Below, piece by piece: positions 1 through 43,282 of a stretch of DNA of 64,000 nucleotides. The position numbers and the translations under genes are program-made. Numbering within the stretch: the first letter of the stretch is position 1; each line of letters opens with the position of its first letter. The notes beneath the pieces were generated by a model. It saw nothing but the letters and a program-made list of their open reading frames with translations, was not told where the DNA came from and searched no databases. Origin of the DNA: an uncultured virus (IMG/VR IMGVR_UViG_3300009666_001319) (lineage: Duplodnaviria; Heunggongvirae; Uroviricota; Caudoviricetes). The stretch is taken from IMG/VR virus record IMGVR_UViG_3300009666_001319; one strand, 5' to 3'.

Positions 1-768
1 TTACTGGTCGCGTGTGGGCTCCGGTTGTACCGGATCAGGTGATGTGGATGCATCCGACTGTAATTGCGGATCTGCTTCCCTGGTCTTTTCCCGCACGCCC
101 GTCAGCATCGCAATCTCCACAAAGCCGTCCATCTCTTTGACCTCGGTCTCCTTCTTGTACTGCTCCATCGGCACACCGAAGGTATTAGCGATATCATCCG
201 AGTAATAGCCTTTTCTGGTATCGACCTTAACGACCTCGCCATTCTCGTCCACAGGCTCCTCACCCTTCTTCGGCTTCTCATTAAATATCTGCGGTACATT
301 GAGATCAAAGACAAAGTAGAGTTTACCATCGTATGGGATCAGATATCCCAGCATTTTATAACGGCACTTCTTATCCCAGCCAAAGTGCTCATATATTGAA
401 TCCGTGAAATCAGGGCAGCGCATCCTGCGGCTCTTGCGCTTATCCTGCTTCGCTACGCACCAACGCAGAGCATGCTTGTCATTCTGGTCGCAGCCGGACA
501 CGGAGAAAAGTCCGGTCTCCTCGTCAAACATCAGCTTGACCCAGACCACACCCTCCAGTTCCCTGATGCAGGCAGCATTGAATGAGATATTCCCATCCCG
601 GAAAGTGACAGACGGATCTCGCGGACTTGGGAACAACTCCTTACGAATAACCTTCATTCTGTCAGGATTGAACATTCCCATCAGTTCTTGCCGACGCGCT
701 TCTCTGGCGGAAGAATCCTGATCCTGATTTATATTCTCGTTGATCTCATTGATCTGATCCTCATTCAT
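1..768 (-). CDS. Recombinase-associated hypothetical protein, paralogous to the C-terminal domain of the upstream recombinase
   Basis: ATGA overlap with the stop of 765..2615; KVIRKELFP..ISFNAACI..ALRW..GW..RYKMLG aligns by eye with KVVRADYFP..LRFSTACL..AIHW..SW..KYRFRG. Confidence 0.7.
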   Translation of the reverse strand: MNEDQINEINENINQDQDSSAREARRQELMGMFNPDRMKVIRKELFPSPRDPSVTFRDGNISFNAACIRELEGVVWVKLMFDEETGLFSVSGCDQNDKHALRWCVAKQDKRKSRRMRCPDFTDSIYEHFGWDKKCRYKMLGYLIPYDGKLYFVFDLNVPQIFNEKPKKGEEPVDENGEVVKVDTRKGYYSDDIANTFGVPMEQYKKETEVKEMDGFVEIAMLTGVREKTREADPQLQSDASTSPDPVQPEPTRDQ

Positions 769-2615
769 GCTGTCTTCTTCCACCCTTCCATAATCGTTTC
801 TGCTTCCTTCATCAGGGCCGCCAGTTTATCGGCAGTGAAGGTATTCATCTCTTCCAGTTCTGTGGCCGGGCGCAGTACATCCCAGTCGCCGGCATAATGC
901 TGCTGCACCAGAACTGATGCGTGGTCATAACTGCTGACCGGCACTCCGAATGAGGATGTCCAGGCTGACGGATACACACGCACCGTTTCCTTGATGACGA
1001 TTTCCTCCGCTGTGGCCTCTTCATCTGTCTCCTCTGCCTCATCCGGCTTCTCCGGCACAATGACCTGCTCCACCATCTTTGTAACCACAGGCTCGTCCAG
1101 CTCGAAAATCAGGAGTTTCTGATCTTCCTGGTTTATGTACTGTCCCCGGAACCGGTACTTGCCCTCGTCCTCCCAGCTCATGAGATCGAAGAGCGTCTTG
1201 GACAGGCCACGGCATCCCATCGTGCTGACCACCCAGCGTTCCTCCTGGAGCCTTCCCCAGTGGATGGCGTTCGGGTTGCTCTCATCGCACGGACGGATGG
1301 CGATGGTATTCGTGACCGTGTTCAGCAGAAGCTCCACATATTCCACATCTTCAAACTGTTTAAGGCAGGCTGTACTGAACCGCAGCTTGCCGTTTTCTAT
1401 CGTCATAGTCAATTGTTCCCGTGATGGAAAATAGTCTGCCCGGACTACCTTGTAACCGCCCATGAAAAGCTGCGGTCCCTTGGCAGTCACTTTTACCTCC
1501 GAGATCTCCACGCTCTCACACGCCTTCTGGTATTCCTCCGTGGAGAAGCCCGACCAGTTCTTGTCTATCGGAACAAAGCCGGAAAGGATGCCGCCATCGA
1601 TCACGCTCAGGACAGGGAGCGGACGGCTCTTGGATGCATACGCCCTGGACGACTGCAGCTTGTTCGCCGCGTCATAGACTTCTTTCGTGACGATGGGGTC
1701 ATGGTTTTCGGGATCAATATACTGGGTGCGCTGCCCCTCATTCTTCACAGACTTGTGATCCTTGAAGTTCGGTGTGTAGGTCTTGTGCGCCAGCACATAA
1801 CCGCAATGCCGCTCGTTCTCTATGATCCCGGCGATTGAAGTCGGATTCCATACCTCGTTACCAAGTTTGGTCTTCCTGCCATACTTGGTAAGAAGGTCAG
1901 CAATCTCCGTATGCGACCATCCATTGAGGAACAGGTAGAAAATCACCTTCACGGTTTCCGCCTCATCCTCATTGATGATCAGATGCCCGTCCTCATCCTT
2001 GTCGTAGCCAAGCAGCGCGGGTGTCAAGAAGATGCCCTTTGCAAAGCGCCGCTCCACGGACCAGTTCATGATGAAGGATTTAGACCTGGACTCCTCCTCC
2101 GCTACGGTAGCGAGGATGGTAAGCACCATGGCTCCTGTTGTATCCAGGGTATAAAGCCCGCCCTCGTCAAAGCGGACGCCCACATTATTCTTCCTCAATT
2201 CATCGATAACAGATAAACAGTCAACGACGTTCCTGGCAAACCTCGCTATCGATTTTGCCAAAATCAGGTCAATCTTTCCCGCCTTGGCATCCTCGATCAT
2301 CTGGAGCATACCCTTCCGATGAGTCAGCTCCGTACCTGAGATACCCTCGTCGCTGTATATTCCCGCGAACTCCCAGTGAGGGTTGCTCTTGATCCTCTCC
2401 GTGAAATCATTGACCTGCAATTCGTAGGAAGACTTCTGCTCATCATTCTCCGTGGACACACGAACATACGCCGCGACCTTCAGCGGCCGTTCCTCCAGGT
2501 TGGCTTCCGCCGTAACCTTTGCCGGTATGACGATCAGCCTGGAAGGGTCCACGCCCTTATACCGTTCGGCAATTTTCTCTTTGCTGTCAACCGCGTTCTT
2601 CTCACTGGCGATCAT
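765..2615 (-). CDS. Large serine recombinase with C-terminal extension
   Basis: AAYVRVS catalytic motif, DEGISG, KSIARFARN, LGYDKD recombinase domain. Confidence 0.93.
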   Translation of the reverse strand: MIASEKNAVDSKEKIAERYKGVDPSRLIVIPAKVTAEANLEERPLKVAAYVRVSTENDEQKSSYELQVNDFTERIKSNPHWEFAGIYSDEGISGTELTHRKGMLQMIEDAKAGKIDLILAKSIARFARNVVDCLSVIDELRKNNVGVRFDEGGLYTLDTTGAMVLTILATVAEEESRSKSFIMNWSVERRFAKGIFLTPALLGYDKDEDGHLIINEDEAETVKVIFYLFLNGWSHTEIADLLTKYGRKTKLGNEVWNPTSIAGIIENERHCGYVLAHKTYTPNFKDHKSVKNEGQRTQYIDPENHDPIVTKEVYDAANKLQSSRAYASKSRPLPVLSVIDGGILSGFVPIDKNWSGFSTEEYQKACESVEISEVKVTAKGPQLFMGGYKVVRADYFPSREQLTMTIENGKLRFSTACLKQFEDVEYVELLLNTVTNTIAIRPCDESNPNAIHWGRLQEERWVVSTMGCRGLSKTLFDLMSWEDEGKYRFRGQYINQEDQKLLIFELDEPVVTKMVEQVIVPEKPDEAEETDEEATAEEIVIKETVRVYPSAWTSSFGVPVSSYDHASVLVQQHYAGDWDVLRPATELEEMNTFTADKLAALMKEAETIMEGWKKTA

Positions 2616-3601
2616 TCGTGGCTCACTTCCTTTGTTTCATTTTCCGGCTTTACCCAGTACCACTTCCGCATCTTCCTGAACGGCTTGATACCCAAGGCAA
2701 CCTTTGCATCATTCATGGTTTTCTCGCCGATCCGATATTCAGCCATCAGCTTTTTGATCTCTGTGGACTCCACAGGTCCATCTTCTAATGCCTTTGTTAT
2801 CAGGATGGCAGCCAGTTCATGCTTGTTCTTGGGAAGATCAGGAACAGGCTCGGCATCCGTGCCCTGCTCATTGGTCCCCATCTCAAGCCAGCGGAAACCA
2901 GTCTCCGGCCTGATCTCAAATGAGAAGTCAGGTCCCTTCGGTGCAGAACTGCTTTTCACATGGCGGACGATTCTGATCGCTTCATCATGCTTCGACCGTT
3001 CCACCTGCAGGACGCTTCTCGCGGAAGCTACCAGGTCAATGCTGCCAAGTCCCCGGTATAAATTCTTCTGCCCGCCGCTCTTGTTCATGTGCCCGATAAC
3101 CACAATGGCGCATTCATATTTGGATGCCCATATTCCGGTCCGCCTCATTAGCCTCCGTGCTTTGGACGCACTCATAAGGTCGGAGTCGTTCTCAACATAA
3201 GCCTGTATGGGATCGATAATCAGGAGACGCGGCCGGAAATACTCTATTGCTTCCCTCAGCCGCTCATCGTCGATGGTCAGGCCGCCATAGATTTCCTCGT
3301 TGATGAAGGCAATGTTACGGCAGTCAGCGCCGTAGGCTTCCAGTCTTGGTTTGATGGTATCGGCGGCATCATCCTCAGAACACTGGTAGATGATTTTCTG
3401 TGGCCGTCCGAGCGCCGTTCCATCAGGCATCGCACCACCTCTGGACAATTCCGCCACGATGTTCATCATCATGGTGGACTTGCCATCATTCGGATCACCC
3501 TGGAGAAGAGTGACTTTCCCCACGGGGATATATGGACGCCATAGCCACTGAACCGGCTTTGACTGGATGTCACTGTACAGCGTCAGCAGCTTCGACTCCA
3601 C
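2612..3601 (-). CDS. AAA ATPase (RepA/AAA_25-like helicase family)
   Basis: Walker A GDPNDGKST, Walker B LLIIDP, 'GHMNK..YRGLGS..ASARSVL'; GTG start after a GGAAGG RBS. Confidence 0.8.
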   Translation of the reverse strand: MESKLLTLYSDIQSKPVQWLWRPYIPVGKVTLLQGDPNDGKSTMMMNIVAELSRGGAMPDGTALGRPQKIIYQCSEDDAADTIKPRLEAYGADCRNIAFINEEIYGGLTIDDERLREAIEYFRPRLLIIDPIQAYVENDSDLMSASKARRLMRRTGIWASKYECAIVVIGHMNKSGGQKNLYRGLGSIDLVASARSVLQVERSKHDEAIRIVRHVKSSSAPKGPDFSFEIRPETGFRWLEMGTNEQGTDAEPVPDLPKNKHELAAILITKALEDGPVESTEIKKLMAEYRIGEKTMNDAKVALGIKPFRKMRKWYWVKPENETKEVSHE

Positions 3602-3812
3602 CTTCTTGCCACCTTCCCTCCCGGAACTGATAGGCGCGATAAACACGCACCCTGTCTTTCTGAGAATATTATACAGTAGAAACGCGGTTCTCACCTTGAC
3701 CCAGTTGCGCAAACTGAACTCTGCATTTGCGCTATCAGCGCAAGAAAATGGCTCAGATCCCCAATCCCGCACCCAGAAAACAAATCACCATCTTAATCGT
3801 TTGGAATTCCCG

Positions 3813-3886: not shown

Positions 3887-4228
3887 ATGGCCCTTAACTA
3901 TGCAGACGTAGGAAAGCACATAAAAGAGAAGCGATTGGATAAAGGATTATCGCAGGTCGATCTCGGAGAAATTGTCCGTGTTAACAGTGAACACATTAGC
4001 CGCATTGAAACGGGAAAAAAGCCAGTAACACTTGACCTTCTTGTTCTAATAGCCAATGCGCTCGATGTTTCTGCCGATGATCTCCTTGTTGATGCGTTAG
4101 AGTGTACCAGTTCCCCTGTAGGACAGGAGCTTCACGCCATCTTACAGGACTGTAACCATGACGAGCGGGAGATGCTCATTCGACTTTTAAAGTTCATGAA
4201 GGAGCTCTTCCGGGAATTTAGTATCTGA
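3887..4228 (+). CDS. XRE-family HTH transcriptional regulator
   Basis: IKEKRLDKGLSQVDLGE..HISRIETG..LIANALDVSADDLL. Confidence 0.9.
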   Translation: MALNYADVGKHIKEKRLDKGLSQVDLGEIVRVNSEHISRIETGKKPVTLDLLVLIANALDVSADDLLVDALECTSSPVGQELHAILQDCNHDEREMLIRLLKFMKELFREFSI

Positions 4229-4330: not shown

Positions 4331-4771
4331 TTACGCCACGGCCAGCCAGCAGTCTGTGATGAACTCGGCCATTTCCACAGGCATTGATTCGACATAATTC
4401 TTGCCGTCAAGTGCCGGGAACAGGTCATCCCTCATGAAGGCAATCGTCCGTTCCAGCAGCTTTTCTCCCGGCTGTGCCTTCCATTCCATCGCAGAGATTG
4501 TGGCTGCTGTTCTCGCATCATCGATCAGCGTCGCAAAAGCATCACAGTCAATTTCGCTCCACTGTTCCGCTGCCAATCCTCGCCTTTTGACCGTGTCGCC
4601 CCGCAGTTCCCGTATTTCCGAGCTGACGATCCGGTTCAGTTTCTCCGGCACAACCTCGGCTCTCAAAGTCTGGAGGTACGCCTTGATCAGCGCAGCCACA
4701 GTCAGATCCGTTATCGAAAATCCGTACTCATCAGCGTGAACGTCACGCAGGATTCCTGTATTCATCTCCAT
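4331..4771 (-). CDS. Hypothetical protein
   Basis: ORF with GGAGG RBS; no motif recognised. Confidence 0.6.
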   Translation of the reverse strand: MEMNTGILRDVHADEYGFSITDLTVAALIKAYLQTLRAEVVPEKLNRIVSSEIRELRGDTVKRRGLAAEQWSEIDCDAFATLIDDARTAATISAMEWKAQPGEKLLERTIAFMRDDLFPALDGKNYVESMPVEMAEFITDCWLAVA

Positions 4772-4909
4772 GTACAAAACCTCCCCTGATGTATGTCTGT
4801 AACATTTCCTGTGTTCCTTGTTCCACAAGTTACCTCAGAGTTTTGTACATTTCAAGATTCAGTTGATTCCAGAAGATGGTCATGGTCAGTAAAGCTGGTG
4901 GAAGATATA

Positions 4910-5971
4910 TTATCTGTAGTATTCTGCATACCATTCGGCAAAGGCTCTCAATCCCTCGCGGATGCCGATCTTCGGCGTGAAGCCGTAGTCCCGCTCCAAA
5001 GCGGCGCTGTCAGCGTAGGTCACAGGGACATCGCCGGCCTGCATTCCGACCAGTTCCCGGTGTCCCTCGAAATCATAATCGGCTGGAAGAACTCCGGCTC
5101 GGACCAGTTCCTCCTGGAGCGTGCTGATGTAGTCCAGAAGGTTCTCCGGCTGACCGCCGCCGATATTATACACCGCATAAGGCGGGATCGGCAGGCCGTC
5201 CTCTCCGTTCTTCTTCTCCGGAGCACCCTGCATGACGCGATACACACCTTCCACGATATCGTCGATGAAGGTGAAGTCCCTGCGCATATCTCCGTAGTTG
5301 AAGATCTGGATTGTCTTCCCGGCTACCAGCTTCTGTGTGGCGGAATAGTAGAACATATCCGGGCGGCCGGCAGGACCGTAAACGGTGAAGAAACGGAGTC
5401 CTGTGGACGGGATATTGTAGAGTTTGGAATAGGCGTGTGCCAGCAGCTCGTCACTCTTCTTTGTCGCCGCATAAAGACTGACCGGGTTATCCACCTTGTC
5501 CTCCGTGCTGAACGGCACTTTCTTGTTCCCGCCGTAAACCGAGGAACTGGATGCATAGACGAGGTGCTCCACAGGATTATGACGGCAGGCCTCCAGCAGA
5601 TTGTAGAAGCCGATGATATTGCTCTCGATATACACATCCGGATGATCGATGGAGTAACGGACTCCCGCCTGCGCCGCAAGATTCACCACGATATCAAAGC
5701 GGTAGGTCTGGAAGAGATCGTCCACCAGTGCCTTGTCGCCGATGGAGCCGCGGATGAACACATGCTTGACAGTACTCTCCTCCGCTGCCTTCTCCACAAG
5801 GCCCAGGCGGTATTCCTTCAGTGCCGGATCATAGTAGTCGTTCATGTTATCAAGGCTGACCACTGTGCCACCGCTCATCTCCTTCAGCAGCCGGATCACA
5901 AGGTTTGCCCCGATGAATCCCGGTGAGCCGGTCACCAGGATGGTCTTATTGTTCAAATCCATCTTCTGCAT
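4910..5971 (-). CDS. NAD-dependent nucleotide-sugar epimerase (UDP-glucuronate 4-epimerase-like)
   Basis: TGSPGFIG, NLAAQAGVRYS, YAATK, RFFTVYGPAGRPDM. Confidence 0.93.
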   Translation of the reverse strand: MQKMDLNNKTILVTGSPGFIGANLVIRLLKEMSGGTVVSLDNMNDYYDPALKEYRLGLVEKAAEESTVKHVFIRGSIGDKALVDDLFQTYRFDIVVNLAAQAGVRYSIDHPDVYIESNIIGFYNLLEACRHNPVEHLVYASSSSVYGGNKKVPFSTEDKVDNPVSLYAATKKSDELLAHAYSKLYNIPSTGLRFFTVYGPAGRPDMFYYSATQKLVAGKTIQIFNYGDMRRDFTFIDDIVEGVYRVMQGAPEKKNGEDGLPIPPYAVYNIGGGQPENLLDYISTLQEELVRAGVLPADYDFEGHRELVGMQAGDVPVTYADSAALERDYGFTPKIGIREGLRAFAEWYAEYYR

Positions 5972-7465
5972 TTAATCCCTCCGGAACAGGTCTCTGGTAT
6001 AGACCTTCTCTTCCACATCATCCAGCGCCGTGTCATAACGGTTGGCGATGATGCATCCGCACATCTTCTTGAACTTCTTGAGGTCGTTTACCACAACGAA
6101 GCCAAAGAACGTGCTTCCATCCTCCAGTGTCGGCTCGTAGATCACCACGGTCGCGCCTTTGGCCTTGATCCGCTTCATGACGCCCTGGATGGAGGACTGA
6201 CGGAAGTTGTCGCTGTTCGACTTCATGGTAAGCCGGTAAACGCCAACCACAACTTCCTTCTGGCGGCTCTCTTTATCTGCCGAGTAGGACTCGCTGTTCC
6301 CGTAGGTCCCGGCAATCTCCAGTACACGGTCTGCGATGAAGTCCTTTCTCGTCCGATTACTCTCAACAATCGCTTCGATCAGGTTCTCCGGCACATCCTG
6401 GTAGTTCGCCAGAAGCTGTTTCGTATCCTTCGGCAGGCAGTATCCGCCGTATCCGAAGGACGGGTTATTGTAGTAATCTCCGACTCTCGGATCGAGACAC
6501 ACACCCTTGATGATCGGCGCGGTCTTCAGATGCTTGACCTCGGCATAGGTATCCAGTTCATTGAAGTAGCTGACGCGGAGTGCCAGGTAGGTATTCACAA
6601 ACAGCTTGGTCGCCTCGGCTTCCGTGGTCTCCATGAACAGGACAGGGATGGATGTCTTGATTGCCCCCTGCTGCAACAATGCCGCGAACTCCTCCGCCGC
6701 TTTCATATTCGCCTCATCTGCCCCCACGATGATCCGGCTCGGATACAGGTTGTCGTAAAGTGCTTTACTCTCCCGCAGGAACTCCGGACTGAAGATGATA
6801 TTATCCATGCCCATCTTCTCCCGAACGTGGACGGTGTATCCGACCGGGATCGTGGACTTGATCACGATGGTCGGCTTGACCTCCCTGTCCGCTGTCGCTT
6901 CCTTGATCAGCCCCAGCACCGCTTCCACAGCGGAGCAGTCAAAGAAGTTCGTCTTCGGATCGTAGTTGGTCGGAGCCGCGATGATGATGAAGTCAGCAGA
7001 TGCGTATGCGGGAGCCGCATCTGTGGTGGCACGGAGGGACAGCTTTCTCTCCTCATGCTCCGCCATATATTTCTCTATGTACTCATCCTGGATCGGGCTC
7101 TTCCAGGCATTGATCTTTTCGACCTTCGCTTCTACGATGTCCACGGCAGTCACATCGTTGTGCTGGGACAGCAGGACAGCCAGAGAAAGGCCAACGTAGC
7201 CGGTTCCGGCCACAGCGATGTTCTTCCGCTCGACTGCTACCGACTCTGCCTCATCATCCACAATGACATCTGTGGGCTTGAAGCCCAGCACCTCACAAAT
7301 GGAAAGGAGCTGATCCACGGACGGGCTGTAGTCCTGCATTTCAAGTCTGGATAAAATGGATCGGTTTATATTTACCCTCTTCGATAATTCAGCCTGGGAA
7401 AGCTTCAGCACTTTTCTCCGGCTGACCACGATCTCCGAGAGGAGTTTCAGTGATAAATGCTTCAT
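5972..7465 (-). CDS. ugd: UDP-glucose 6-dehydrogenase with N-terminal XRE HTH domain
   Basis: [31 protein letters not shown]; the first ~70 aa are HTH-like ([21 protein letters not shown]). Confidence 0.92.
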
Positions 7466-7529
7466 AACGGATTCCTCCTGACAATGTTGTTGCTATCAGC
7501 GTCAATATAATATCGAATGCAACATCAAT

Positions 7530-7558
7530 ATAATAGCAAGAAGCCCTGAATAATGCAA
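7530..7558 (-). promoter_or_regulatory. Sigma70-type promoter for the ugd operon
   Basis: TTGCAT-17bp-TATTAT on the minus strand. Confidence 0.55.
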
Positions 7559-7667
7559 TATGTTTGTTGTTAATAATGGGCATCATTTTCTCCTGTATGC
7601 TCCGTTTTACTATATTTTGGACGCTATCAGCGTCAATGTAAAAGTAATGATGGACGCTAATAACAGC

Positions 7668-7720
7668 AAAAAGCCCACTAAGCCGCTTCCGAAGTGTCCC
7701 GGTAGTTGCTTAGTGGGCTG
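7668..7720 (-). terminator. Rho-independent terminator after the recombinase cluster
   Basis: agcccactaagc...gcttagtgggct inverted repeat with a T-run on the minus strand. Confidence 0.7.
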
Positions 7721-7732
7721 TCTGATACCTGC

Positions 7733-8938
7733 TCATGATGCCTTTGCCATTCTCACGATCTCCACACCGTCATCCGAAACCATCACCCTCTCAATCTCTC
7801 CAAGCCTCTCTTCCGAAACCGCCTCCCAGCCCATCTGGATACAGATGGAAGCCAGAAGGTCGGTCTCGCGGATGGTGCGGCAGGTACAGCCGTTTCCCTT
7901 CCTGCCCTTGTGCCGCTCCCGGCATGTCCATGCCTTGTAGTTTGCACCATCGTATCCCCTAAGCGTCCGCCTGGTCATCGGCGCTCCGCACTCGGCGCAG
8001 AAGATCAGGCCATATAGAAAGTGCGGCTGACCACCCCTGTGACCGACCGCACTCTCGATTTCCTTCTTCTGTTTCAGTTTCTCCTGTACCGCGTCCCACA
8101 TGACAGGCTCCACGATGGCTTCATGATCCCCTTCCAGATAGAAGCTTTCATAGTGTGCCCGTTTGTCCGGCTTCTTCGTCAGAAAGTCTTTAGGCGGCTG
8201 CTTCTGCAGGAGTTTATCGCCCCGGTAGGTTTCGTTTTTCAGGATGTAGAGGATGTCGTTGTGGGAGATCAGCGTCCCCTTCCTCGTCCTCACACCGTAA
8301 TCCGCAAGGAGCCTGCGGATCTCCTCGATGTTCTTCCCTTCCAGGTAGAGGGTGTAGATCAGGCGGACGGCATCCGCGTCCTGATTCGGCACGAGCTTCC
8401 CATCCACGCAGTCGTAGCCGAGGATACGGTTGTTGCCGAGGTTGTACTCACCCCGCTTGAACCGCTCACGGTAAGCCCAGCGGACGTTCTCGGAGATGGA
8501 GCGGCTCTCGTCCTGCGCGATGGCCGAGAGGAAGGAAAGCATCATGGAACAGGATGGGCTTGCCGTGTCAAGGTTCTCCTTCTCGAATCTGACGTCCACG
8601 CCGTTGCCGTGGAGCAGCTTCACATAGTGCTGGCAGTCAACGATGTTCCGGGAGAAACGGCTGATGCTCTTGCAAAGAATGTAGTCCACCTTCCCGTCCA
8701 AAGCGTCCCTTATCAGCTTCTGGAATCCTGCCCTGTTCTCCGCTTTCGTGCCGGATTTCTCGTCGCTGTATATCCCTGCGAACTCCCACTCGTCATTGGC
8801 TTCGATGAAAGATTTGTAGTAGCTGACCTGCGTCTCAAAGCTGTCCTCCTGCTCTTCCAGCAGGGTGGACACACGGCAGTATGCCGCGACCCGCTTCTTG
8901 TGCAGGTCCCTTTTCCTTGGAATCCTTGTGAATTTCAT
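7733..8938 (-). CDS. Large serine recombinase with Zn ribbon
   Basis: AAYCRVS, KSISRFSRN, CAECG...WTC. Confidence 0.95.
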   Translation of the reverse strand: MKFTRIPRKRDLHKKRVAAYCRVSTLLEEQEDSFETQVSYYKSFIEANDEWEFAGIYSDEKSGTKAENRAGFQKLIRDALDGKVDYILCKSISRFSRNIVDCQHYVKLLHGNGVDVRFEKENLDTASPSCSMMLSFLSAIAQDESRSISENVRWAYRERFKRGEYNLGNNRILGYDCVDGKLVPNQDADAVRLIYTLYLEGKNIEEIRRLLADYGVRTRKGTLISHNDILYILKNETYRGDKLLQKQPPKDFLTKKPDKRAHYESFYLEGDHEAIVEPVMWDAVQEKLKQKKEIESAVGHRGGQPHFLYGLIFCAECGAPMTRRTLRGYDGANYKAWTCRERHKGRKGNGCTCRTIRETDLLASICIQMGWEAVSEERLGEIERVMVSDDGVEIVRMAKAS

Positions 8939-10443
8939 GCCGTCTCCGCCTCCTTCTCCTTCTGGGCTTCCTTCTGCCGCTCAAGGTAGCTGTTGTAAAG
9001 CTCCGCGATCATCGGCGGGTGTTCCCGGTCGGCATCCACACCGGACATGACCGTGGTGATCAGGCCGCACTTCCAGAACACCTTCATGGTGCGGTCGTCC
9101 ACGACATCCTCCCCAAGAGCCGCAAGCCTGCGGTACTCCCTGTCCGTCCTGCTGTGCGCCCCGAACTCGATGTGGTCGATAAGGTCATCCACCCACCAGA
9201 AGTCCACGCTCTTCATCACCGGATGTGCCTTCCTGATCTCCAGCGCCAGCTTCGCATCAGCGCCAAACCTCAGGCTGTTTACCTTCTCGGCGATCTTCCC
9301 TGCCTCCAGCTTTTTATAGGCTTCCAGCAGCGCCGTCTCCACAATGTTTGAGCGGATGATGAAGCCGTGGCAGGCGTCATCGCCCTTCTCACAGACCCAT
9401 CCCTTCTTGTGTTTCAGCTGGACCGGCACAGCCCTCTGGTAAAGCACCGATCCGCAGTAAGGACAGCGGAGCTTATCGCCCAGGGGATACTGATTGCAAG
9501 TTCCCGTGTCGTGTTCCTTCCGATGCCCGTTTACCCTGCGCATCCCCATGATCTTCATGCAGCGGTCATACTGCTTTCTCGGAATGATCGCGGCGTGGTG
9601 GTTTTCGATGTAGTAGCTCGGAACCTCCGTACTGTCGTTCTTGATGGACTTGTGGCTCAGATGGTCTTCCGTGAGGAACTTCTGGAGGATGATGTCCCCC
9701 GTGTAGCGTTCGTTGATCAGAAGGGTGTGTACCGCTGAGTCGGTCCACTTCGGCTCCCCTGTCGGGCTCTTGATGCCATGCGCCGCGAGGTACTTGCGGA
9801 TGCTCTGGATGCTCTCCCCATGTTCGTAGAGCTCGAAGATCTTCTGCACCACCGCCGCATGCTCCGGCACGATCTGATATTCACCGTCCGCCGTCTTCTC
9901 GTAGCCGTAGAGCCTGCTCCAGCGCGTGACGCCGTCTTCAAACCGCTTCCGGATGCCCCAGGATGTGTTCTCGGAAATCGACCGGCTCTCCTCCTGGGCA
10001 AAGGCCGCGAGGACGGTCAGGAGCATCTCCGAGAAAGCCGTGCGCGTATCGATGTTGTTGCTCTCGAACACGATGTGGACGCCCAGGTTGTTGAGGTGGC
10101 GCACAAAGGTCAGGCATTCGAGGGTATTTCGGGCGAAGCGGCTGATCGATTTTGTCAGGATGAGGTCGATTTTTCCTTCCTCGCATTCTTTCACCATCCG
10201 CTGGAACTCCGGCCGTTTGGCTGCGCTCGTACCCGTGATGCCCTCGTCGGCGAAGATGCCCGCCAGTTCCCATTCCGGGTTCCCCTCAATCAGCCCGGTG
10301 TAGTGTTTGACCTGTCCATCAAAGCTGGTCTTCTGGTCCTCTGTATCCGTGGAAACCCGGCAGTAGGCAGCCACACGGAGCTTGCCGGTCTGCTCCCTGA
10401 TCGTTTTCCTGATCGGCTCAAGCTTGATCTTCTGTACTTCCAT
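8935..10443 (-). CDS. Large serine recombinase with Zn ribbon
   Basis: AAYCRVS, DEGITG, KSISRFARN, CPYCG; ATG preceded by AAAGGAG. Confidence 0.95.
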   Translation of the reverse strand: MEVQKIKLEPIRKTIREQTGKLRVAAYCRVSTDTEDQKTSFDGQVKHYTGLIEGNPEWELAGIFADEGITGTSAAKRPEFQRMVKECEEGKIDLILTKSISRFARNTLECLTFVRHLNNLGVHIVFESNNIDTRTAFSEMLLTVLAAFAQEESRSISENTSWGIRKRFEDGVTRWSRLYGYEKTADGEYQIVPEHAAVVQKIFELYEHGESIQSIRKYLAAHGIKSPTGEPKWTDSAVHTLLINERYTGDIILQKFLTEDHLSHKSIKNDSTEVPSYYIENHHAAIIPRKQYDRCMKIMGMRRVNGHRKEHDTGTCNQYPLGDKLRCPYCGSVLYQRAVPVQLKHKKGWVCEKGDDACHGFIIRSNIVETALLEAYKKLEAGKIAEKVNSLRFGADAKLALEIRKAHPVMKSVDFWWVDDLIDHIEFGAHSRTDREYRRLAALGEDVVDDRTMKVFWKCGLITTVMSGVDADREHPPMIAELYNSYLERQKEAQKEKEAETA

Positions 10444-10611
10444 AAATGGTCTCCTTTCCGCGCCGCTGTAGGTTATCCCCCGGCGCTGTCCTATATTCCC
10501 GTAAAACCTCGTGCATAGCAAGTTAATTGTGAGAAATACAAGCACTTATTGGCCGTATAATCCGTAGAATAATCCGGCCTGTTTCAGCCGGATAACTGGT
10601 AGTTCCGAACA

Positions 10612-10650
10612 AAGAAACGGCCCCCTGAGAACATATCCCAGAGAGCCGTG
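10612..10650 (-). terminator. Probable terminator between the two recombinase operons
   Basis: cggctctctgggatatgttctcagggggccg followed by tttcttt on the minus strand. Confidence 0.55.
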
Positions 10651-10657
10651 TAAGCCT

Positions 10658-12160
10658 TTATTCCGCCTGCCTCTTCCGTACTTCCTCCGCCAGTTTCGGG
10701 TACCTGTCCGGATAGCGGAGAAGGTAGCCGTCCCACAGCTTTGCCTTATGCCTCGGATCGTGGGAATCCCTGACTACGCCGGAAGGAACCGCTGTCATAA
10801 GCCCGCACCGCCAAGTGATGGTGATCGTGCGGTCGTCCAGCACCTTCGCCTGTTCCGGCTCCATCAGCTTCAGGTCGGATGCCGTGTAGCTGTGCTGACC
10901 AAACTCGATCTTAGCCACATACTCATCCAGCCACCAGTAATCGACGGCATCAAAGGCGGGATGCGCCGCCTTCCCCTCCAGCAGCTTCCCTGCCTCTTCC
11001 GCCTTTCTGCGGAGCTTCATGGTACTGATCCGTTCCACCTCCGCCAGGTCGAGGCTGTTCCAGGCATCGAGGATCGCCTTCTTTACCGGGATCGCCATGA
11101 TCGCAAACTCCCTGCAGGCTCCTTCCCCCTCACAGCAGAAATGGCTGTCGATATTCTGGATCTCCAGCCGCCTGTGGCGGAGGACATGGCCGCAGTATGG
11201 GCAGCGCAGGTAATCCCCGAAAGGATACTGCGATGGCGTGGACTTCTTCTTCAGTTCCAGGATCACATTGCAGCGGTCGAACTGCTTTCTCGGCACGATA
11301 GGCTCGTGATGGTCCTTCAGCATCTTACCCGGAAGCAGCCCGTCATTCCTGTAGCAGCGGTAGTCCATGTAGCTCTTTTTGTAGAACTTCTGCGTCTGCA
11401 AATCGCCGGCATATTTCTCGTTCATGATCATGTAGTGGATGCGGGACTCATCCCACACTTTCGTTTCCCCGTTCGGCATCGGATACCCCCTGTCCTTCAG
11501 CGTCCGGGTGATCTCCGGCACGGAGGTCCCATGCTCATAAAGGTCGAAAATCAGCCTCACTGCCTCCGCTTCCTCCGGCACGATCTCGTAGGTATCGTCC
11601 TCCTCGTTCTTCCGGTAGCCGTACACAGGGATCAGAAGGGCATGCCCCTTCTGCAGCCGTTTCCGCTTGCCCCATTTGACGTTTTCAGAATGGGAATGGC
11701 TCTCTTCCTGCGCAAAGGCGGCAAGCACGGTCAGGAGCATTTCCGAATACTCGCTGTCCGTGTCGATGCCTTCCTTCTCGAAAATGAGCCGGATGCCGAG
11801 GCTGCGCAGCTTGCGCATGTAGTTCACTGCATCCAGCGTGTTGCGGGAAAAGCGGGACACGGACTTACAGATGATGGCATCGATCTTCCCGTCCTCACAG
11901 TCCTGCACCATCTGAAGGAACTGCGGCCTTCTTTCCGCCTGTGTACCTGAAATCCCGTGGTCGGCATAAATGCCTGCCATCGTCCAGCCGGGCTCCGCCC
12001 TGATCTTCTCGGAATACACAGCCACCTGCGTATCATAGCTCAAATGCTGCTCGTCCGATTTGGTCGAGACACGGCAGTAGGCGGCCACACGCAGGAGCTT
12101 CTTTTCTTCCGCCTGTTTCTCTTCCGGATTGTAGATCTTCGTGACCCTGATCTCAGCCAT
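10658..12160 (-). CDS. Large serine recombinase with Zn ribbon
   Basis: AAYCRVS, KSVSRFSRN, CPYCG. Confidence 0.95.
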   Translation of the reverse strand: MAEIRVTKIYNPEEKQAEEKKLLRVAAYCRVSTKSDEQHLSYDTQVAVYSEKIRAEPGWTMAGIYADHGISGTQAERRPQFLQMVQDCEDGKIDAIICKSVSRFSRNTLDAVNYMRKLRSLGIRLIFEKEGIDTDSEYSEMLLTVLAAFAQEESHSHSENVKWGKRKRLQKGHALLIPVYGYRKNEEDDTYEIVPEEAEAVRLIFDLYEHGTSVPEITRTLKDRGYPMPNGETKVWDESRIHYMIMNEKYAGDLQTQKFYKKSYMDYRCYRNDGLLPGKMLKDHHEPIVPRKQFDRCNVILELKKKSTPSQYPFGDYLRCPYCGHVLRHRRLEIQNIDSHFCCEGEGACREFAIMAIPVKKAILDAWNSLDLAEVERISTMKLRRKAEEAGKLLEGKAAHPAFDAVDYWWLDEYVAKIEFGQHSYTASDLKLMEPEQAKVLDDRTITITWRCGLMTAVPSGVVRDSHDPRHKAKLWDGYLLRYPDRYPKLAEEVRKRQAE

Positions 12161-13649
12161 GCGATTTCACCTTTTTCCATTTCTCCCGGACTTCCTCCGC
12201 CTGTTTCGGGTACTTGTCTTCATGCCGCAGGACGTAAGCATCCCACAGGATAGCTTTGTGCTTTGGGAACTGGGAGTCGCGTATGATGCCGGTCGGGACG
12301 GTCTGGACGACTCCACACTTCCAGCGGATGGTCATCGTGGAATCGTCCGCCGCCTCCCTCATCTCCTCCGGCATGGCGGCAAGCTCTGTCGGCGCGTAGC
12401 TGTGTCTGCCGAACTCAATCCGATCCACCAGGTCATCCAGCCACCAGTAATCCACGGTATCGAAAGCCGGGTGTTCCGCTTTGATGCTCCTGGCCAGTTC
12501 ATCATCTGCCCCGCTCACATCCAGTTCCGCATACGCTTTAAGCAGAGCCTCATCCACAAGCGGCCTGTCGATCACAAAGCCCCTGCAGGCTCCCTCACCC
12601 TGGCAGAAGAAAAACTGGTTCCTGCCCTGGTCCGTCTTTGCCATCCACAGGGTCTTTCCGCAGTAAGGGCATTTCAGCATATCGGAATATGGGTACTGCA
12701 CCGGCCTGATCCGCGAGGTGCTTCGCATGAGCTGGATGTCTCCGCAGCGGTTGAACTGCTTCTCTGTGATGATCGCCTCGTGATGGCCGAAGATGTAATT
12801 CTGCGGAAGTTCCCCTTTGTTCTTCACTTCCTTGCCGGTCATGAAGTCCGGCGTGTACCGTTTCTGGGTGATGATGTCGCCCATGTACTTGACGTTGTTG
12901 AGCATCCCCCAGATCCTCGATTCCTCCCAGTTACCGATGCGGTACTCATCGATCATCGGGCGCGGGACGCCCTTTTCACGTAGTTCCTTACGGATCGTGG
13001 AAATCGGCATCCCATGCTCGTACTGGTCGAAAATCCAGCGGACGATCTCCGCCTCCTCCGGCACGATGACCATCGTCTTTCCGTCATCCGACTTCCTGTA
13101 ACCGTAAGGCGTATACAGCGGAGCATTACCGGCCATCGCCCTCTTTCGCTTGCCCCACTTCACGTTCTCGGAATGGGAGTGGCTCTCTTCCTGGGCAAAG
13201 GCGGCAAGGACAGTCAGCAGCATGGCGGAATACTCGCCTTCGGTATCGATGTTCTCCTTCTCGAAGATGAGCCGGATTCCCATCCCCCGGAGCATCTGGA
13301 TGTAGCGGACGGCATCGAGGGTGTTGCGGGAAAATCGGGAGACTGATTTACAGATCACCGCATCGATTTTCCCATCCTCGCAGTCATGAATCATCTGGAG
13401 GAACTGCGGCCGTTTCTCCGCCCTTGTGCCGGACAAGCCGTAGTCTGCGTACAGCCCCGCCAAAGTCCAGCCCGGCTCCGCCGCGATCCTGACACGGTAG
13501 GCATCCATCTGCCCCTCGTAACTTGACCGCTGTTCATCTCGCTTTGATGAGACACGGCAGTAGGCAGCCACACGGAGGAGCCGATCGGTACCTTCTTTCT
13601 TCTCCCCCGGATTGTAGATCTTCGTGACCTTCATACCGCCTTCCGCCAT
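12153..13649 (-). CDS. Large serine recombinase with Zn ribbon
   Basis: AAYCRVS, KSVSRFSRN, CPYCG. Confidence 0.95.
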   Translation of the reverse strand: MAEGGMKVTKIYNPGEKKEGTDRLLRVAAYCRVSSKRDEQRSSYEGQMDAYRVRIAAEPGWTLAGLYADYGLSGTRAEKRPQFLQMIHDCEDGKIDAVICKSVSRFSRNTLDAVRYIQMLRGMGIRLIFEKENIDTEGEYSAMLLTVLAAFAQEESHSHSENVKWGKRKRAMAGNAPLYTPYGYRKSDDGKTMVIVPEEAEIVRWIFDQYEHGMPISTIRKELREKGVPRPMIDEYRIGNWEESRIWGMLNNVKYMGDIITQKRYTPDFMTGKEVKNKGELPQNYIFGHHEAIITEKQFNRCGDIQLMRSTSRIRPVQYPYSDMLKCPYCGKTLWMAKTDQGRNQFFFCQGEGACRGFVIDRPLVDEALLKAYAELDVSGADDELARSIKAEHPAFDTVDYWWLDDLVDRIEFGRHSYAPTELAAMPEEMREAADDSTMTIRWKCGVVQTVPTGIIRDSQFPKHKAILWDAYVLRHEDKYPKQAEEVREKWKKVKSHG

Positions 13650-14599
13650 GACTCCGCCTCCTTTGCGGCGAGCTTCATCGCGTGGTCCATGATCTCCTTT
13701 TCCTCGGCGCTGAACTTCCTGCGGTGTCCGCCAAGGGTCTGATGGTCCAGAAGCTCCTGCACCACGTTGTAGAGGTCCTTGCTCACCAGTGCCGGGTGGT
13801 GGTCTTCAATGAGGATCTGGTCGACCTGACCCCTGTTCTTGACCCTCTTTACCACACCAAACTCATCCACGATGCGGCATTCCTTATTCGACAGGTAATT
13901 GCCGATGTAGGTTTCGCTGCGGAGAAGGTTGACTACCGGGGTCTTGTTCCATACCCTGCCGTCCCCATCTTCCGCTTCCATTCGGGTCAGTTCCTCGGCG
14001 ATCTCCGCGTAGGTGTAGCACATCCCCGCCATGTAGAAAGCCTGACGGACGACTTCCGCCTCATGCTCAACCACTTCCCACCTGTGTTCCTTGCCGACCG
14101 ATACAAAACCGTACCTGGCCGTATCCCAGGGCTGCCCTTTCTCGACATGCTTCTGCCGGCTCCAACTTAAGTTCATGGAGATGGAGTTGCTCTCCTCCTG
14201 GGCAATGGTCGCAAGGATGCCGAGCATCAGTTCCCCGCCCATCGTCTCCGTATCAAGGTTCTCCTTCTCGAACCTGACCGTTACGCCGCACTCTTTCAGG
14301 TGGCGGATGGCTTCCACGCATTCGAGCATGTTCCTCGCAAAGCGGCTGATCGACTTCGTTAAGACAAGATCGATCTTCCCGGCCTCGCAGTCCTTGATGA
14401 GCCGGTTCAGTTCCTTCCGTCCGCGCATGGAGCGTCCGCTCTTGCCGTGATCACCGTAAACACCGACGAACTCCATGTCCGGATCGTTCCTGATGAGTTT
14501 CTCGTAGTATTCGCACTGGACTTCAAAGGAGCCGTCCTGCGTGTCGCTGTTGGTGCTGACGCGGCAGTAGGCAGCCGTGCGCAGTTTCTTTCCTTCCAT
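13631..14599 (-). CDS. Serine recombinase lacking the Zn ribbon (catalytic plus recombinase domains)
   Basis: AAYCRVS, KSISRFARN; 322 aa with no CxxC in the C-terminus. Confidence 0.93.
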   Translation of the reverse strand: MEGKKLRTAAYCRVSTNSDTQDGSFEVQCEYYEKLIRNDPDMEFVGVYGDHGKSGRSMRGRKELNRLIKDCEAGKIDLVLTKSISRFARNMLECVEAIRHLKECGVTVRFEKENLDTETMGGELMLGILATIAQEESNSISMNLSWSRQKHVEKGQPWDTARYGFVSVGKEHRWEVVEHEAEVVRQAFYMAGMCYTYAEIAEELTRMEAEDGDGRVWNKTPVVNLLRSETYIGNYLSNKECRIVDEFGVVKRVKNRGQVDQILIEDHHPALVSKDLYNVVQELLDHQTLGGHRRKFSAEEKEIMDHAMKLAAKEAESWRKAV

Positions 14600-14759
14600 T
14601 CTGCTTCCTCCTGATTCTGTAAATTGGCCGGATCAGAAGGCTTCCCGCCTTCTCTCGCGGTCATCGTATATTCCCGTAAAGTGCTGTACATAGCAACTCT
14701 ATATTGGATACTTCTTCACTTATTTTTTCGGGCAGCGGTATCCGTTAAATCTTGAAAAA

Positions 14760-19356: not shown

Positions 19357-20598
19357 TCAGGCAGGGATCAGCTTAAATCCAAGTTTAGTGGCTTCGGCTT
19401 TTAGCTTCTGCTTGCGTCTCTCTTCTTGATTTTTCTTGGTCTCCTCATATCGTGTTTCTTCGTAGATTTCTCCTGTGGTAAGGATATGCCACACAATTGC
19501 CAGAAGCTTGCGTGCGACTGCAATCAGCGCTTTTTTCGTTCCGCGCCGAGCACGTAATCGGTAAAACCAATCTCGAAGGAAGAAATTCTTACATCGCGTA
19601 GCTGCCCAAGCGCATTGCACCATGACGCTCTTAATCCGCGGATTACCCTTTGTGATTCTGGTGGATTTTTTCTTTCCGGCGCTCTCGTTGTCGCCGGGGC
19701 ACAGTCCCGCCCATTTACACAAATGACCAGCTGTAGGAAACATAGTGAGGTCAACACCCAATTCTGAAACGATGATTGTACTTGCACGGCGTTGTATCGA
19801 AGGAACCGTTTCCAGCAATTGCAAGGTCGGCTCGTACTGACGCGCGCCACCCTCAATGTGCCGTTCCACTTCTTCGATTTCCTTCTGGCAATTCTCCATG
19901 ATTTTTACCAGATTTGTCAGAAACACCTTGTCATGGGCTGAAAGCTGACCGGCAACAGCCTGCTGAACTTCTGCGGATTTTGCTCTGAGGGTTCCATGGA
20001 GACATTCTTCCACATCCAATTGGGTCAGCTTTCCTTTGTCACACAGCTTTTTGATCAGCTCAAAACCCGACATACCAAATATATCCGACAAAATCGTCGA
20101 AAGCTTAAAACCGCACTGCTGCAAATGCTTTTCAATACGATTTTTATGACCGACCAGTTCTTTGATCAGGATGTCGCGGTATCTTGTCCAATCCCGTAGC
20201 TCCCTGATTTCTTTGGGAGGGATGTAGCTTGGAGCAAGTAGTCCCGCGCGCAAGAGTGTTGCGATCCAATGGGCATCCTTAATATCCGTTTTCTTGCCTG
20301 GCACATTTTTCATGTGGTGGGGATTGGCAACGATGATATTTACCTGACCATCTTCATAAAAAATGGACTCCAGCACGTTGTAGATCGGAAACCAATATAC
20401 GCCTGTGCTTTCCATGGCCACATCATGACAATCATTTTCCATCACCCATTTTTTGAATTCGTCCAGACCATAAAGGAGTGTCGGAAATTCCTTAATGACT
20501 GGCTCCGGTTCCTCGTCTATGCCACCCTTAAGCATACATGCGACAAGAACTTCCTTGTGCACGTCAAGCCCGCAGCATACCTCCAACAGATTTCGCAT
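19357..20598 (-). CDS. IS110 DEDD recombinase/transposase
   Basis: GLDVHK, AMESTG, KKTDIKDA, WAGLCPGDNESAGK, ALIAVARKL. Confidence 0.96.
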   Translation of the reverse strand: MRNLLEVCCGLDVHKEVLVACMLKGGIDEEPEPVIKEFPTLLYGLDEFKKWVMENDCHDVAMESTGVYWFPIYNVLESIFYEDGQVNIIVANPHHMKNVPGKKTDIKDAHWIATLLRAGLLAPSYIPPKEIRELRDWTRYRDILIKELVGHKNRIEKHLQQCGFKLSTILSDIFGMSGFELIKKLCDKGKLTQLDVEECLHGTLRAKSAEVQQAVAGQLSAHDKVFLTNLVKIMENCQKEIEEVERHIEGGARQYEPTLQLLETVPSIQRRASTIIVSELGVDLTMFPTAGHLCKWAGLCPGDNESAGKKKSTRITKGNPRIKSVMVQCAWAATRCKNFFLRDWFYRLRARRGTKKALIAVARKLLAIVWHILTTGEIYEETRYEETKKNQEERRKQKLKAEATKLGFKLIPA

Positions 20599-29877: not shown

Positions 29878-30244
29878 CGTCCAGATCCTCCAGGCTGAAG
29901 GAGACATTCCACAGGCTGCCGCCGCTCGTGTCATGCTCCAGGGAGACCTTGAAGCCGTCCATATACATGATGCCGGAGGACAACTCCCCGGTCTCCGGGT
30001 CCAGCCATTCCACGTTCAGGTACGGCTCCTTCTTCAGCTTCCGCAGCTTTTTGAGCCACGATGCGGACACAGGCAGCGTCACGGAGATGGAAGGGATGCC
30101 TTCCCGGATCACATCCCGGATGGTAGTTCCTGCCTCCGTCACGCCCCCGCTGTCGGCCACCACATCGGTGTAGTCAATGGAATAGTCATCCTTCTGGACA
30201 GGAAGGGCCGTCCCGTTGATTTTGATATACGTTTGAAATGTCAT
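29870..30244 (-). CDS. Distal tail-like protein
   Basis: Directly after the tape measure gene; TEAGTTIRDVIR. Confidence 0.65.
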   Translation of the reverse strand: MTFQTYIKINGTALPVQKDDYSIDYTDVVADSGGVTEAGTTIRDVIREGIPSISVTLPVSASWLKKLRKLKKEPYLNVEWLDPETGELSSGIMYMDGFKVSLEHDTSGGSLWNVSFSLEDLDDV

Positions 30245-42803: not shown

Positions 42804-43282
42804 CAGTTCCCTCCCAGCAGGTCTTCCATGTCATCCACCGCAGCGTTCTTAAGCTCCGCCCCGGCTGTGATCCGGCTCCTTGCGGAAGGCGTCAGACCGA
42901 ACTGCTCCGCGATCTTGTTCATGATCTTAAGGTAGGTCTGGGCAATGGAAACCTGCGGAACCTGCTGCCAATAGCCGGACGGCGTCTTGGTGATCGTTCC
43001 GTGCTGCGTCATAAACTCCTCCGCCTCTTTCCATCTGGCATACGCCTGACAGTAGGAAGCGAAAGCAGCCTGGTCGACCTCGGTCAGCACACCGATCTGC
43101 TCAAGCTGCTTTGATAGCCTGCGCCACTCCTTCTTTGCCTCCGGCTCCAGCCACTTCGGACACGGAGGCGCTTTCCTTTCCGGTTTTGGCTCCTGCTCAT
43201 TGAGCGGACGCTTGCCCGGATTGCCTTCCAGTTCCTTGATCGCTGTCGGTGTCGGCTTTCTTCCCCTCGTAGCCATTGGCAT
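42803..43282 (-). CDS. Terminase small subunit (P27 family)
   Basis: RGRKPTPT..GNPGKR..FGLTPSARSRI. Confidence 0.93.
   Translation of the reverse strand: MPMATRGRKPTPTAIKELEGNPGKRPLNEQEPKPERKAPPCPKWLEPEAKKEWRRLSKQLEQIGVLTEVDQAAFASYCQAYARWKEAEEFMTQHGTITKTPSGYWQQVPQVSIAQTYLKIMNKIAEQFGLTPSARSRITAGAELKNAAVDDMEDLLGGN

Follow-up and report, generated by a model that had tools for sequence, protein, structure and literature searches.

Serine integrases are the textbook case of integration by a single protein and have found wide use in genome engineering. CcrA and CcrB of SCCmec, two different large serine recombinases (LSRs) that are encoded side by side and needed together, set a precedent for heteromeric LSR action. 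To our knowledge, multi-gene sets such as pairs and triplets have long been recognized, and the need for several enzymes has found no explanation. Nine streptococcal integrative and conjugative elements (ICEs) or their derivatives carry a triplet of serine integrases (Ambroset et al., 2016, PMC4701971). The ICE triplets integrate into mutT, traG or hsdM with 2-8 bp repeats, and their members cluster as external, middle and internal types, which points to an ancestral three-gene module (PMC4701971); the portions of that paper on which we draw offer no reason for the three enzymes. Multi-targeting LSRs, often DUF4368-bearing, were defined by Durrant et al. (2022, PMC10083194). Here we describe a stretch of 64,000 nucleotides from an uncultured virus (IMG/VR record IMGVR_UViG_3300009666_001319; hereafter the window), in which five successive intact LSR genes (R1 to R5, minus strand, 7733-14599) lie directly after the lysis genes. 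The array is real and more than a chance arrangement, and is best read as a position-structured multi-gene serine integrase of a known kind, in expanded form, beside a second and separable LSR module.

Scans for relatives of the middle genes yielded 63 distinct viral loci and 76 genome loci, in which LSR open reading frames (ORFs) were found by a profile of the six window proteins (R1 to R5 and a sixth LSR, R6) and labelled by best match. The dominant layout is a gene encoding 300-380 amino acids (aa), then one of ~500 aa and one of ~400 aa, co-oriented and mostly overlapping. A FastTree tree of 109 representatives of the 238 LSRs in the viral set, midpoint-rooted for drawing only, split the proteins by array position with support of 97-100. 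The R1-type clade has 28 rows (support 99), the middle-type (M) clade 43 (support 97), the R5-type clade 21 (support 100) and the R6-type clade 13 (support 100). R2, R3 and R4 all fall in the M clade, R2 and R3 in one sub-clade (9 rows) and R4 in another (10 rows). Judged by tree position, the window array is a first-position gene (R1), three M genes (R2, R3 and R4) and a last-position gene (R5). A first-pass annotation, made from the sequence letters and an ORF list, had divided the array into a three-gene and a two-gene functional unit. This division did not hold up, the tree giving one first-type, three middle-type and one last-type gene; it corresponds to the transcription signals, not to the gene families.

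Array sizes were counted for whole arrays, none of them cut by a locus end, and the viral count excludes copies of the window itself (L003, L013 and L052). The viral loci contain seven whole arrays of two genes, 28 of three, 11 of four, none of five and one of six; the corresponding numbers for the genome loci are 22, 31, 4, 1 and 1. The commonest whole array therefore has three genes (59), followed by pairs (29), which belong mostly to a different pair type, and by four genes (15), with one array of five and two of six. The sole five-gene whole array besides that of the window is L081 in the relative G009, whose members are 98-100% identical to the window array, and L082 carries R1-R2-R3 at 75-80% identity before its contig ends. 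The six-gene arrays are a foreign pair joined to a four-gene array (L023) and the order R1-M-M-R1-M-R5 (L090). On sequence grounds, the window array is an expanded form of a three-gene set that is widespread in gut and rumen Clostridia. Another LSR layout (~540, ~300 and ~550 aa) was noticed in L133, L135, L148, L150 and L151, which come from Tissierella, Clostridiaceae, Desulfosporosinus and Sedimentibacter records.

Like the ICE triplets, the window locus has consecutive co-oriented LSR genes that fall into position clades and lie near an element end (PMC4701971); the likeness is one of layout and position clades, not a sequence comparison with the streptococcal proteins. It differs from them in residing in a tailed prophage of Clostridia, in having three M genes and five genes in all, and in the R6 module that lies between the array and the end, whereas the ICE triplets are found at the extremity beside a disrupted target gene. 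Unlike the ICE triplets with their few target genes, related phages here show many different flanks (PMC4701971). The suggestion of an undescribed system thus went too far, as ICE triplets clustering by position were already described (PMC4701971) and the three-gene layout is common among the loci. The open-access literature that was searched gave the ICE triplets and no description of four or more tandem LSR genes.

Other known systems are more distant. The six proteins are not Ccr members, scoring 57-134 bits against NCBIfam models of CcrA, CcrB and CcrC with cut-offs of 700-900 (the top score, 134, belongs to a model with a cut-off of 900); gene number and domain make-up also differ from CcrA/CcrB, and all six fall far below the NCBIfam cut-off for XisF. 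As with multi-targeting LSRs of the TnpX/TndX type, related phages are joined to four or five different flanks per family, but those enzymes act singly (PMC10083194), and phrase searches of that paper, in the text accessible to them, found nothing on several LSRs per element. None of the six proteins has a Pfam match to DUF4368, nor do their isolated tails even at an E-value of 10; the sole link, an Atlas feature score of 0.86 with a DUF4368 cluster, is a lead, not a match. Compared with single phage integrases (SPbeta SprA, Bxb1, Listeria LI integrase and phiC31), the locus has several genes instead of one, and it differs from them in the two short helices that R2 has at the place of the long coiled coil (described below), in R1 without a zinc-ribbon domain and in R5, which ends shortly after that domain. 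Streptococcus suis phages and the "Heliusvirales" gut phages were considered as carriers of the same system and rejected, for they have one LSR or a pair after the endolysin, not a triplet; recombinase, integrase and serine are nowhere mentioned in the Heliusvirales paper.

The prediction of five tandem intact LSRs was confirmed by the reading frames and by Pfam, which found a Resolvase domain (PF00239, E of 7e-28 to 8e-36) and behind it a Recombinase domain (PF07508, E about 4e-20 to 7e-18) in all six proteins. The catalytic motifs noticed at first pass are indeed kept in R1-R5, as YCRVS and SRF[AS]RN; R6 has YVRVS, and Y[CV]RVS and SRF[AS]RN are invariant. Successive genes overlap by 19 nt (R1/R2), 8 nt (R2/R3) and 4 nt (R4/R5), and R3 and R4 are separated by a 112-nt gap; we let R4 begin with the ATG at 10443, served by a GGAGA ribosome site, and not with the GTG at 10545 of the ORF list. 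R1 comprises the catalytic and recombinase domains only and ends before the zinc-ribbon region, with no zinc-ribbon match and no coiled coil. R5 has a clear Zn_ribbon_recom domain (2.5e-11, 44 bits) and stops soon after it. The zinc ribbons of R2 and R4 score 19.6 and 19.3 bits, under the Pfam cut-off of 25.3, and that of R3 is unmatched by Pfam, yet its CPYCG...C..C motif is kept. One protein had been said to lack the zinc ribbon; this is right for R1, though by Pfam R3 and R6 have no match either and R2 and R4 stay below the cut-off.

The C-terminal motif of the VD[FY]WW type, which had been ascribed to the three middle proteins, is common to R2, R3 and R4. An AlphaFold2 (AF2) model of R2 (mean pLDDT of 84.6) has a canonical LSR core and aligns with SprA (Z of 15.6 over 378 residues), Bxb1 (13.5 over 374 residues) and the LI integrase-DNA complex (13.3 over 216 residues) through the catalytic, recombinase and zinc-ribbon domains to about residue 448. 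Since the model follows the solved LSRs until that point, part of the shared C-terminal motif is the distal half of the zinc-ribbon domain. At the place of the long coiled coil the model has two short helices only (362-374 and 384-392), an observation made on R2 alone among the six LSRs. The whole-model structure search was dominated by the catalytic domain, and the last 50 residues of R2 were barely tested by it. The isolated C-terminal parts of R2, R3, R4, R6 and of two smaller proteins encoded downstream of the array (p260 and p165) matched no Pfam family. Identity among R2, R3 and R4 is 48-74% in the catalytic domain, 39-45% in the recombinase domain and 38-48% in the zinc-ribbon part. Judged by their overall identity of 43-57% (57% for R2 and R3), the paralogs are old.

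Ratios of nonsynonymous to synonymous substitution (dN/dS) were computed by the Nei-Gojobori method. Compared with provirus G002, whose array locus is L004, the ratio is 0.08 for R4, 0.05 for R5, 0.16 for the remaining part of R3 and 0.11 for R6; compared with L015, it is 0.10 for R1, 0.12 for R3, 0.22 for R4 and 0.19 for R5. A tail protein (0.09) and the dehydrogenase downstream of the array (0.06) give comparable values. By these ratios, every member with an ortholog compared is under purifying selection (0.05-0.22). The first-pass annotation had named selection on only one gene as an outcome that would speak against its interpretation; what was found is selection on R1, R3, R4, R5 and R6 alike. 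R2 has no ortholog among the loci and is represented by nine protein clusters (P0001-P0009) at 75-90% identity; R2 against R3 gives 0.27, with synonymous sites near saturation. From the endolysin through the dehydrogenase, the window is 98.1% identical to G009 without a mosaic breakpoint in the array, and from R3 codon 120 through the dehydrogenase it is 84.3% identical to G002 without a break at R3/R4.

The promoter-like element that had been reported twice in the array (TTGCTA and GAATAT, 17 nt apart) is real and conserved in relatives. It occurs 5' of R1-type genes in 11 related loci and 5' of R4-type genes in L004, L017, L028 and the window, and a generic sigma-70 consensus scan called neither window copy. 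The second copy looks like a duplication scar. The stretch said to be identical at the starts of R2 and R3 was recovered as a 35-nt repeat. Repeats of 300 nt and 35 nt within the window lie 1483 and 1714 nt apart, roughly the length of a gene. A terminator had been assigned to each supposed unit; a terminator-like hairpin was found after R3, and after R5 a possible one was read by eye and a terminator scan (loop of at most 8) called nothing. Window repeat analysis found no cargo or att-like (attachment-site-like) repeat between R1-R3 and R4-R5.

The gap before the R4-type gene is common to the four-gene relatives, and L090 looks like two adjacent sets. We infer that the array grew by tandem duplication, either of complete sets or of individual genes that carried their promoter along, and that partial loss followed. 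R2 stands on a long branch outside the group of R3 with L004, L014 and L017; this duplication is therefore old, and some lineages lost or exchanged R2. Several rearrangements were noticed along the way. Provirus G002 lost 16.3 kb, the stop of a tail gene being joined, 10 nt on, to about codon 120 of R3 (L004 10365-10376). The same provirus has, beyond R6, a second, isolated N-terminal fragment of R4 (L010 5808-6407; 199 aa, 92% identical) with its promoter region, adjoining an inverted dehydrogenase-epimerase pair. LSR breaks near residue 180-185 recur in the R4 fragment of G002 (R4'), in that of R3 in L051 (R3') and in fusion proteins.

Two kinds of natural fusion involve neighbouring members of such arrays. 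In P0010-P0016 (~800 aa), a complete M protein is followed by a second M unit that starts at about residue 180 and has no catalytic domain, so that a single catalytic domain is combined with two full complements of the recombinase, zinc-ribbon and tail domains. In P0116, P0119 and P0120, a short R1-like unit is fused to a longer unit, giving two Resolvase and two Recombinase domains. These fusions fit a cooperating, probably heteromeric, system. In single LSRs, the choice of sites for synapsis is under the control of the coiled coil. For a set of proteins that have no coiled coil, a minimal one or no zinc ribbon, three independent integrases are hard to picture, and subunits with divided roles would be easier to imagine.

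We propose that the array derives from a three-gene set consisting of a short first gene without a zinc ribbon, a middle gene of ~500 aa and a last gene of ~400 aa. The middle gene would have been multiplied to three (R2, R3 and R4) by tandem duplication, leaving a duplicated promoter that now stands before R4. The members would act jointly as a heteromeric serine recombinase, with different subunits on different half-sites of asymmetric att sites, and the extra M subunits, in which the DNA-binding domains have diverged most, would contribute new half-site specificities or change existing ones. That the array is one co-inherited and selected recombination module of a temperate tailed prophage, acting as a heteromer, is a reading to which we give an even chance. 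Of the interpretation offered at first pass, selection, recurrence (L081 in G009, and L082) and the fusions are in its favour, while the three-plus-two division, the novelty and the membership of R6 have fallen away. An unlikely extension is a combinatorial integrase, in which an R1-type and an R5-type subunit would join with any of several interchangeable M subunits, each with its own half-site, to give one phage several target classes. If so, the M-M fusions would offer another route by which a single catalytic core acquires further DNA-reading modules, and the whole would amount to an undescribed modular specificity system in serine recombinases. Should the subunits share out half-site recognition, the system would be a guide to the construction of serine integrases that act on asymmetric targets or on several targets. 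The locus and its ~140 relatives form a natural series of 3-, 4-, 5- and 6-gene arrays and fused forms, which offers a member without a zinc ribbon, a member with a shortened tail and an M type that diverges mainly in its DNA-binding domains.

The sixth LSR had been noted 5 kb from the array and counted with it. It is present (Table 1), though not as an array member. In relatives, the order 3' of the array is a small ORF, an opposite-strand helix-turn-helix (HTH) gene, an AAA_25 gene, R6 and a protein of ~240-260 aa; the HTH position and the AAA_25-R6 pairing are conserved in L062, L034, L016 and L164. Residues 382-563 of R6 are 25% identical to the G009 ortholog of p260 (BLASTP E of 2e-22), and p260 could be a cofactor or a competitor of R6. 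By clade and gene order, R6 belongs to a different, separable module (HTH, AAA_25, R6 and an R6-tail paralog). Where an R1-to-R5 array has 6.5 kb or more of sequence downstream, or R6 was already seen, an R6-type gene follows the array in 27 of 30 viral loci versus 7 of 17 genome loci; at least one of the three viral exceptions (L025) has R6 farther along the same contig. A scan with R6 as query found an array upstream in 12 of 14 loci, and in L164 homologs of HTH, AAA_25, R6 and p260 are present, the 8 kb upstream being free of further LSRs. In a comparison of the window with G009, the R6 module is 81% identical versus 98% for the array.

A dehydrogenase gene and an epimerase gene lie between the array and this module in the window and in some relatives, and are absent from the slot in L062, L034 and L016. 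The idea that they are host DNA and that the phage ends at R5 was rejected because phages that differ in lysis type and have neither gene still carry the small ORF and the R6 module after the array. That an HTH_3 domain is fused to a sugar dehydrogenase is uncommon in its own right. A 16-nt motif (CAGCGTCAATATAATA type) occurs three times at 7497-7643, in the gap between R5 and the dehydrogenase; these copies may be operators for the enzyme's own HTH domain.

The ends of related prophages were located in two families. In the L062 family, 8 of the 11 loci compared with L062 lose the shared sequence within ~30 nt of one point, 1.5 kb past R6. The junction was aligned in five loci, L062 and four of these eight, and had five flanks, all different; its anchor was not found in five other loci tried. 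The flanks include a tyrosine-recombinase gene, an SpaA-type gene in a mobilisable element and sugar-metabolism genes. A four-gene family (L018/L171, including the cultured Ruminococcus flavefaciens 007c) likewise has a shared end, with four different flanks in the four loci that reach it. Shared ends with differing flanks indicate that these phages insert at many sites; the ends belong to relatives of the window and are not attributable to a particular LSR. R6 is the LSR nearest the junction in both families.

For G009, three other studies supply public contigs that extend over array, cargo and R6 module and stop at ~20.8 kb, just before another endolysin fragment, and one public contig bridges the epimerase, p165, HTH, AAA_25 and R6. 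Beyond ~20.8 kb are scraps of a related prophage and then the host genes hrcA, grpE, dnaK and dnaJ. In this region (L158 870-2770; G009:C28 ~20.9-22.8 kb) we noticed 241 nt of an endolysin gene at 94% identity, together with a start-less epimerase to which a dehydrogenase-HTH stub is fused; these are remnants of an earlier related prophage, which means that phages of this kind stack at one place. In L190, the parts beyond ~12.8 kb are uncovered in runs X2, X5 and X7, a mere hint of a phage end. An 8086-nt "joint" linking two epimerase copies at the G009 locus was considered as an excision of the R6 module and rejected; it is read as a related epimerase from another genome, since the two copies are linked at matching positions and the record departs from the locus right behind the gene. 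An ordinary lysogeny switch, made up of an HTH repressor, an M78 peptidase and a Cro-like gene, occupies the other prophage end in G004.

Several of these observations weigh against a heteromer that integrates the phage. The prophage end lies ~1.5-2 kb beyond R6, and its distance from R5 is ~9 kb in the window layout and ~5.7 kb in L062, so that the array is not the recombinase nearest the junction. The L062 family has multi-site junctions with a single middle gene, and extra M copies are therefore not needed for them. L014 and L017, the closest to R3, have no R2, so the duplication history includes loss or exchange, and deletions cut into R3 in G002 and L051 and into R6 in L061, indicating that the region also decays. 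For the R. flavefaciens prophage, comparison of the host flank with 61 genomes of the genus gave only short or weak matches and no empty site; for L106, no empty site was found in 41 relatives, among which conservation is limited to the upstream gcvP genes, the loci reaching just 1.5 kb beyond these. Neither comparison yielded an att site. The case for heteromers is itself drawn from synteny, co-selection and fusions.

It is possible, if somewhat unlikely, that the R6 module is the acting phage integrase and the array an accessory or hitchhiking cassette that serves its own or cargo movement, resolution, inversion or a second integration route. The place of R6 beside the end in both families agrees with this, as does an R6-side end that abuts five and four different flanks, which is expected of multi-targeting LSRs (PMC10083194). 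The two modules are separable, 10 of the 17 genome loci being without R6 and L164 having the R6 module but no other LSR in the upstream 8 kb, and they have diverged to different degrees between the window and G009. In L098, L100, L104, L106 and L116, host-like genes lie directly upstream of R1 in the triplet and no phage genes were seen in the flanks examined. The triplet of the L088 prophage speaks for the opposite view: it is preceded by a holin and an endolysin, has no R6 beside it, and is followed by a YafQ toxin gene and by a host sugar-transferase gene without its first third, so that it looks terminal and the sole recombinase. The streptococcal ICE triplets, too, are the only recombinases present and were assigned the integration role (PMC4701971). 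The strong purifying selection on the array within the phage, and the contigs of three further studies that keep R5, the cargo and the R6 module contiguous, also count against a mere hitchhiker. Were the array a passenger and R6 the working enzyme, the triplet would be a recombinase cassette that stands on its own and abounds in gut and rumen Clostridia.

The gap, terminator and second promoter copy between R3 and R4 could instead mark two independent sets, R1-R2-R3 and R4-R5, from nested or tandem elements with their own att sites. Related prophage remnants are stacked past the prophage end in G009, G002 and L051, which means that tandem accretion does occur here, and the order in L090 could be two adjacent sets. 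We nevertheless consider this origin quite improbable: no whole array among the loci has R1-M without an R5-type gene or M-R5 without an R1-type gene, all four-gene relatives keep the gap and the promoter in front of the R4-type gene, neither G009 nor G002 has an identity break at R3/R4, and the units have no cargo or att-like repeat between them. Very improbable is that the extra copies are redundant recent duplicates in decay, with one or two genes functional. The truncating deletions in G002, L051 and L061 would fit such decay; the five open frames with intact catalytic motifs, the low dN/dS throughout, the age of the paralogs and the persistence of R2 orthologs at 75-90% in other assemblies do not.

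Table 1. Positions of the array genes, the neighbouring genes and the signals in the window (M, middle-type).
Feature	Position	Strand	Basis or remark
Endolysin, 995 aa	15414-18401	-	Pfam; lysis gene 5' of array
RelB-domain protein, 166 aa	14827-15327	-	Pfam; directly upstream of R1
Promoter-like element (TTGCTA, 17 nt, GAATAT) 5' of R1	14664-14696	-	Repeat family D16
R1, first-position (internal-type) serine recombinase, 322 aa	13631-14599	-	Resolvase 5.2e-32, Recombinase 7e-18
35-nt repeat at R3 and R2 5' ends, 89% identity	12117-12151, 13600-13634	-	Families D13, D1; spacing 1483 nt
R2, middle-type (M), 498 aa, R3 paralog	12153-13649	-	Pfam; AF2 pLDDT 84.6
R3, middle-type (M), 500 aa	10658-12160	-	Pfam; tree sub-clade
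Terminator-like hairpin after R3	10617-10649	-	14 pairs, 8 G-C, then T-rich tail
Promoter-like element, copy 2, upstream of R4	10489-10521	-	79% identical over 33 nt to R1 copy
R4, middle-type (M), 502 aa	8935-10443	-	Pfam; start and ribosome site
R5, last-position (external-type), 401 aa, zinc ribbon, short tail	7733-8938	-	Pfam
Hairpin and TTTTT after R5, possible terminator	~7667-7719	-	Read by eye
HTH-fused UDP-glucose dehydrogenase	5972-7465	-	Pfam; cargo between array and second module
Epimerase	4910-5971	-	Pfam; cargo beside dehydrogenase
p165, conserved small ORF after array in relatives	4331-4828	-	tblastn 30-32% identity in L162, L059; no Pfam
HTH (XRE-type) regulator, opposite strand, start of second module	3887-4228	+	HTH_3 8.4e-13
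AAA_25 ATPase, end overlaps R6 start	2612-3772	-	Pfam AAA_25 1.9e-21
R6, sixth LSR, 616 aa	765-2615	-	Pfam; separate clade
p260 (260 aa), stand-alone R6 C-terminal paralog	1-783	-	tblastn cross-hits

The window is a tailed prophage with almost every gene on the minus strand. Its modules comprise nucleotide-metabolism and replication genes, a terminase (41178-43306), a portal, head-tail connectors, a tape measure (30241-33258) and tail genes. A holin or an endolysin lies upstream of the array in L062, L034, L018, L022, L023 and L088 as well. Megablast of the array against GenBank phages gave no match, and G001 is a 100% identical fragment that corresponds to window 21794-46659 only, a part that does not include the array.

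No toxin partner was seen adjoining the RelB-domain protein upstream of R1; in L098 a RelB-YafQ pair precedes the triplet, and the YafQ gene of L088 follows it. For the R. flavefaciens prophage, a search for an inverted copy of the right end at the presumed left end found none at up to 30% mismatch. Near its junction (L171 9868-10032), a stretch of ~160 nt has further copies at 70-86% identity, one in the same genome and others in seven more genomes of the genus, an unexplained recurrence that would be a short repeat or a small RNA. Provirus G002 has at its early-gene end an ABC-3C type trio (CTD6, MC2 and an AAA/SMC-like ATPase) on the opposite strand (L012 11544-14874). Between the endolysin and the tail-fibre region of the window, a 413-aa ORF (19357-20598) encodes an IS110-family transposase (DEDD_Tnp_IS110 2e-26, Transposase_20 4e-20). 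Two public fragments of this phage break near this gene, G001 beginning at window 21794 and the 21.8-kb contig G003 spanning the gene. A cluster of DNA or nucleotide modification type (43510-49765) contains Nmad4, DUF4314, two GGACT/AIG2-like proteins and Amidoligase_2. Past it lie a 725-aa cytosine-C5 methylase (51457-53634), NrdD (anaerobic ribonucleotide reductase) with its activase (56813-59485) and a SAM synthetase (62114-63454).

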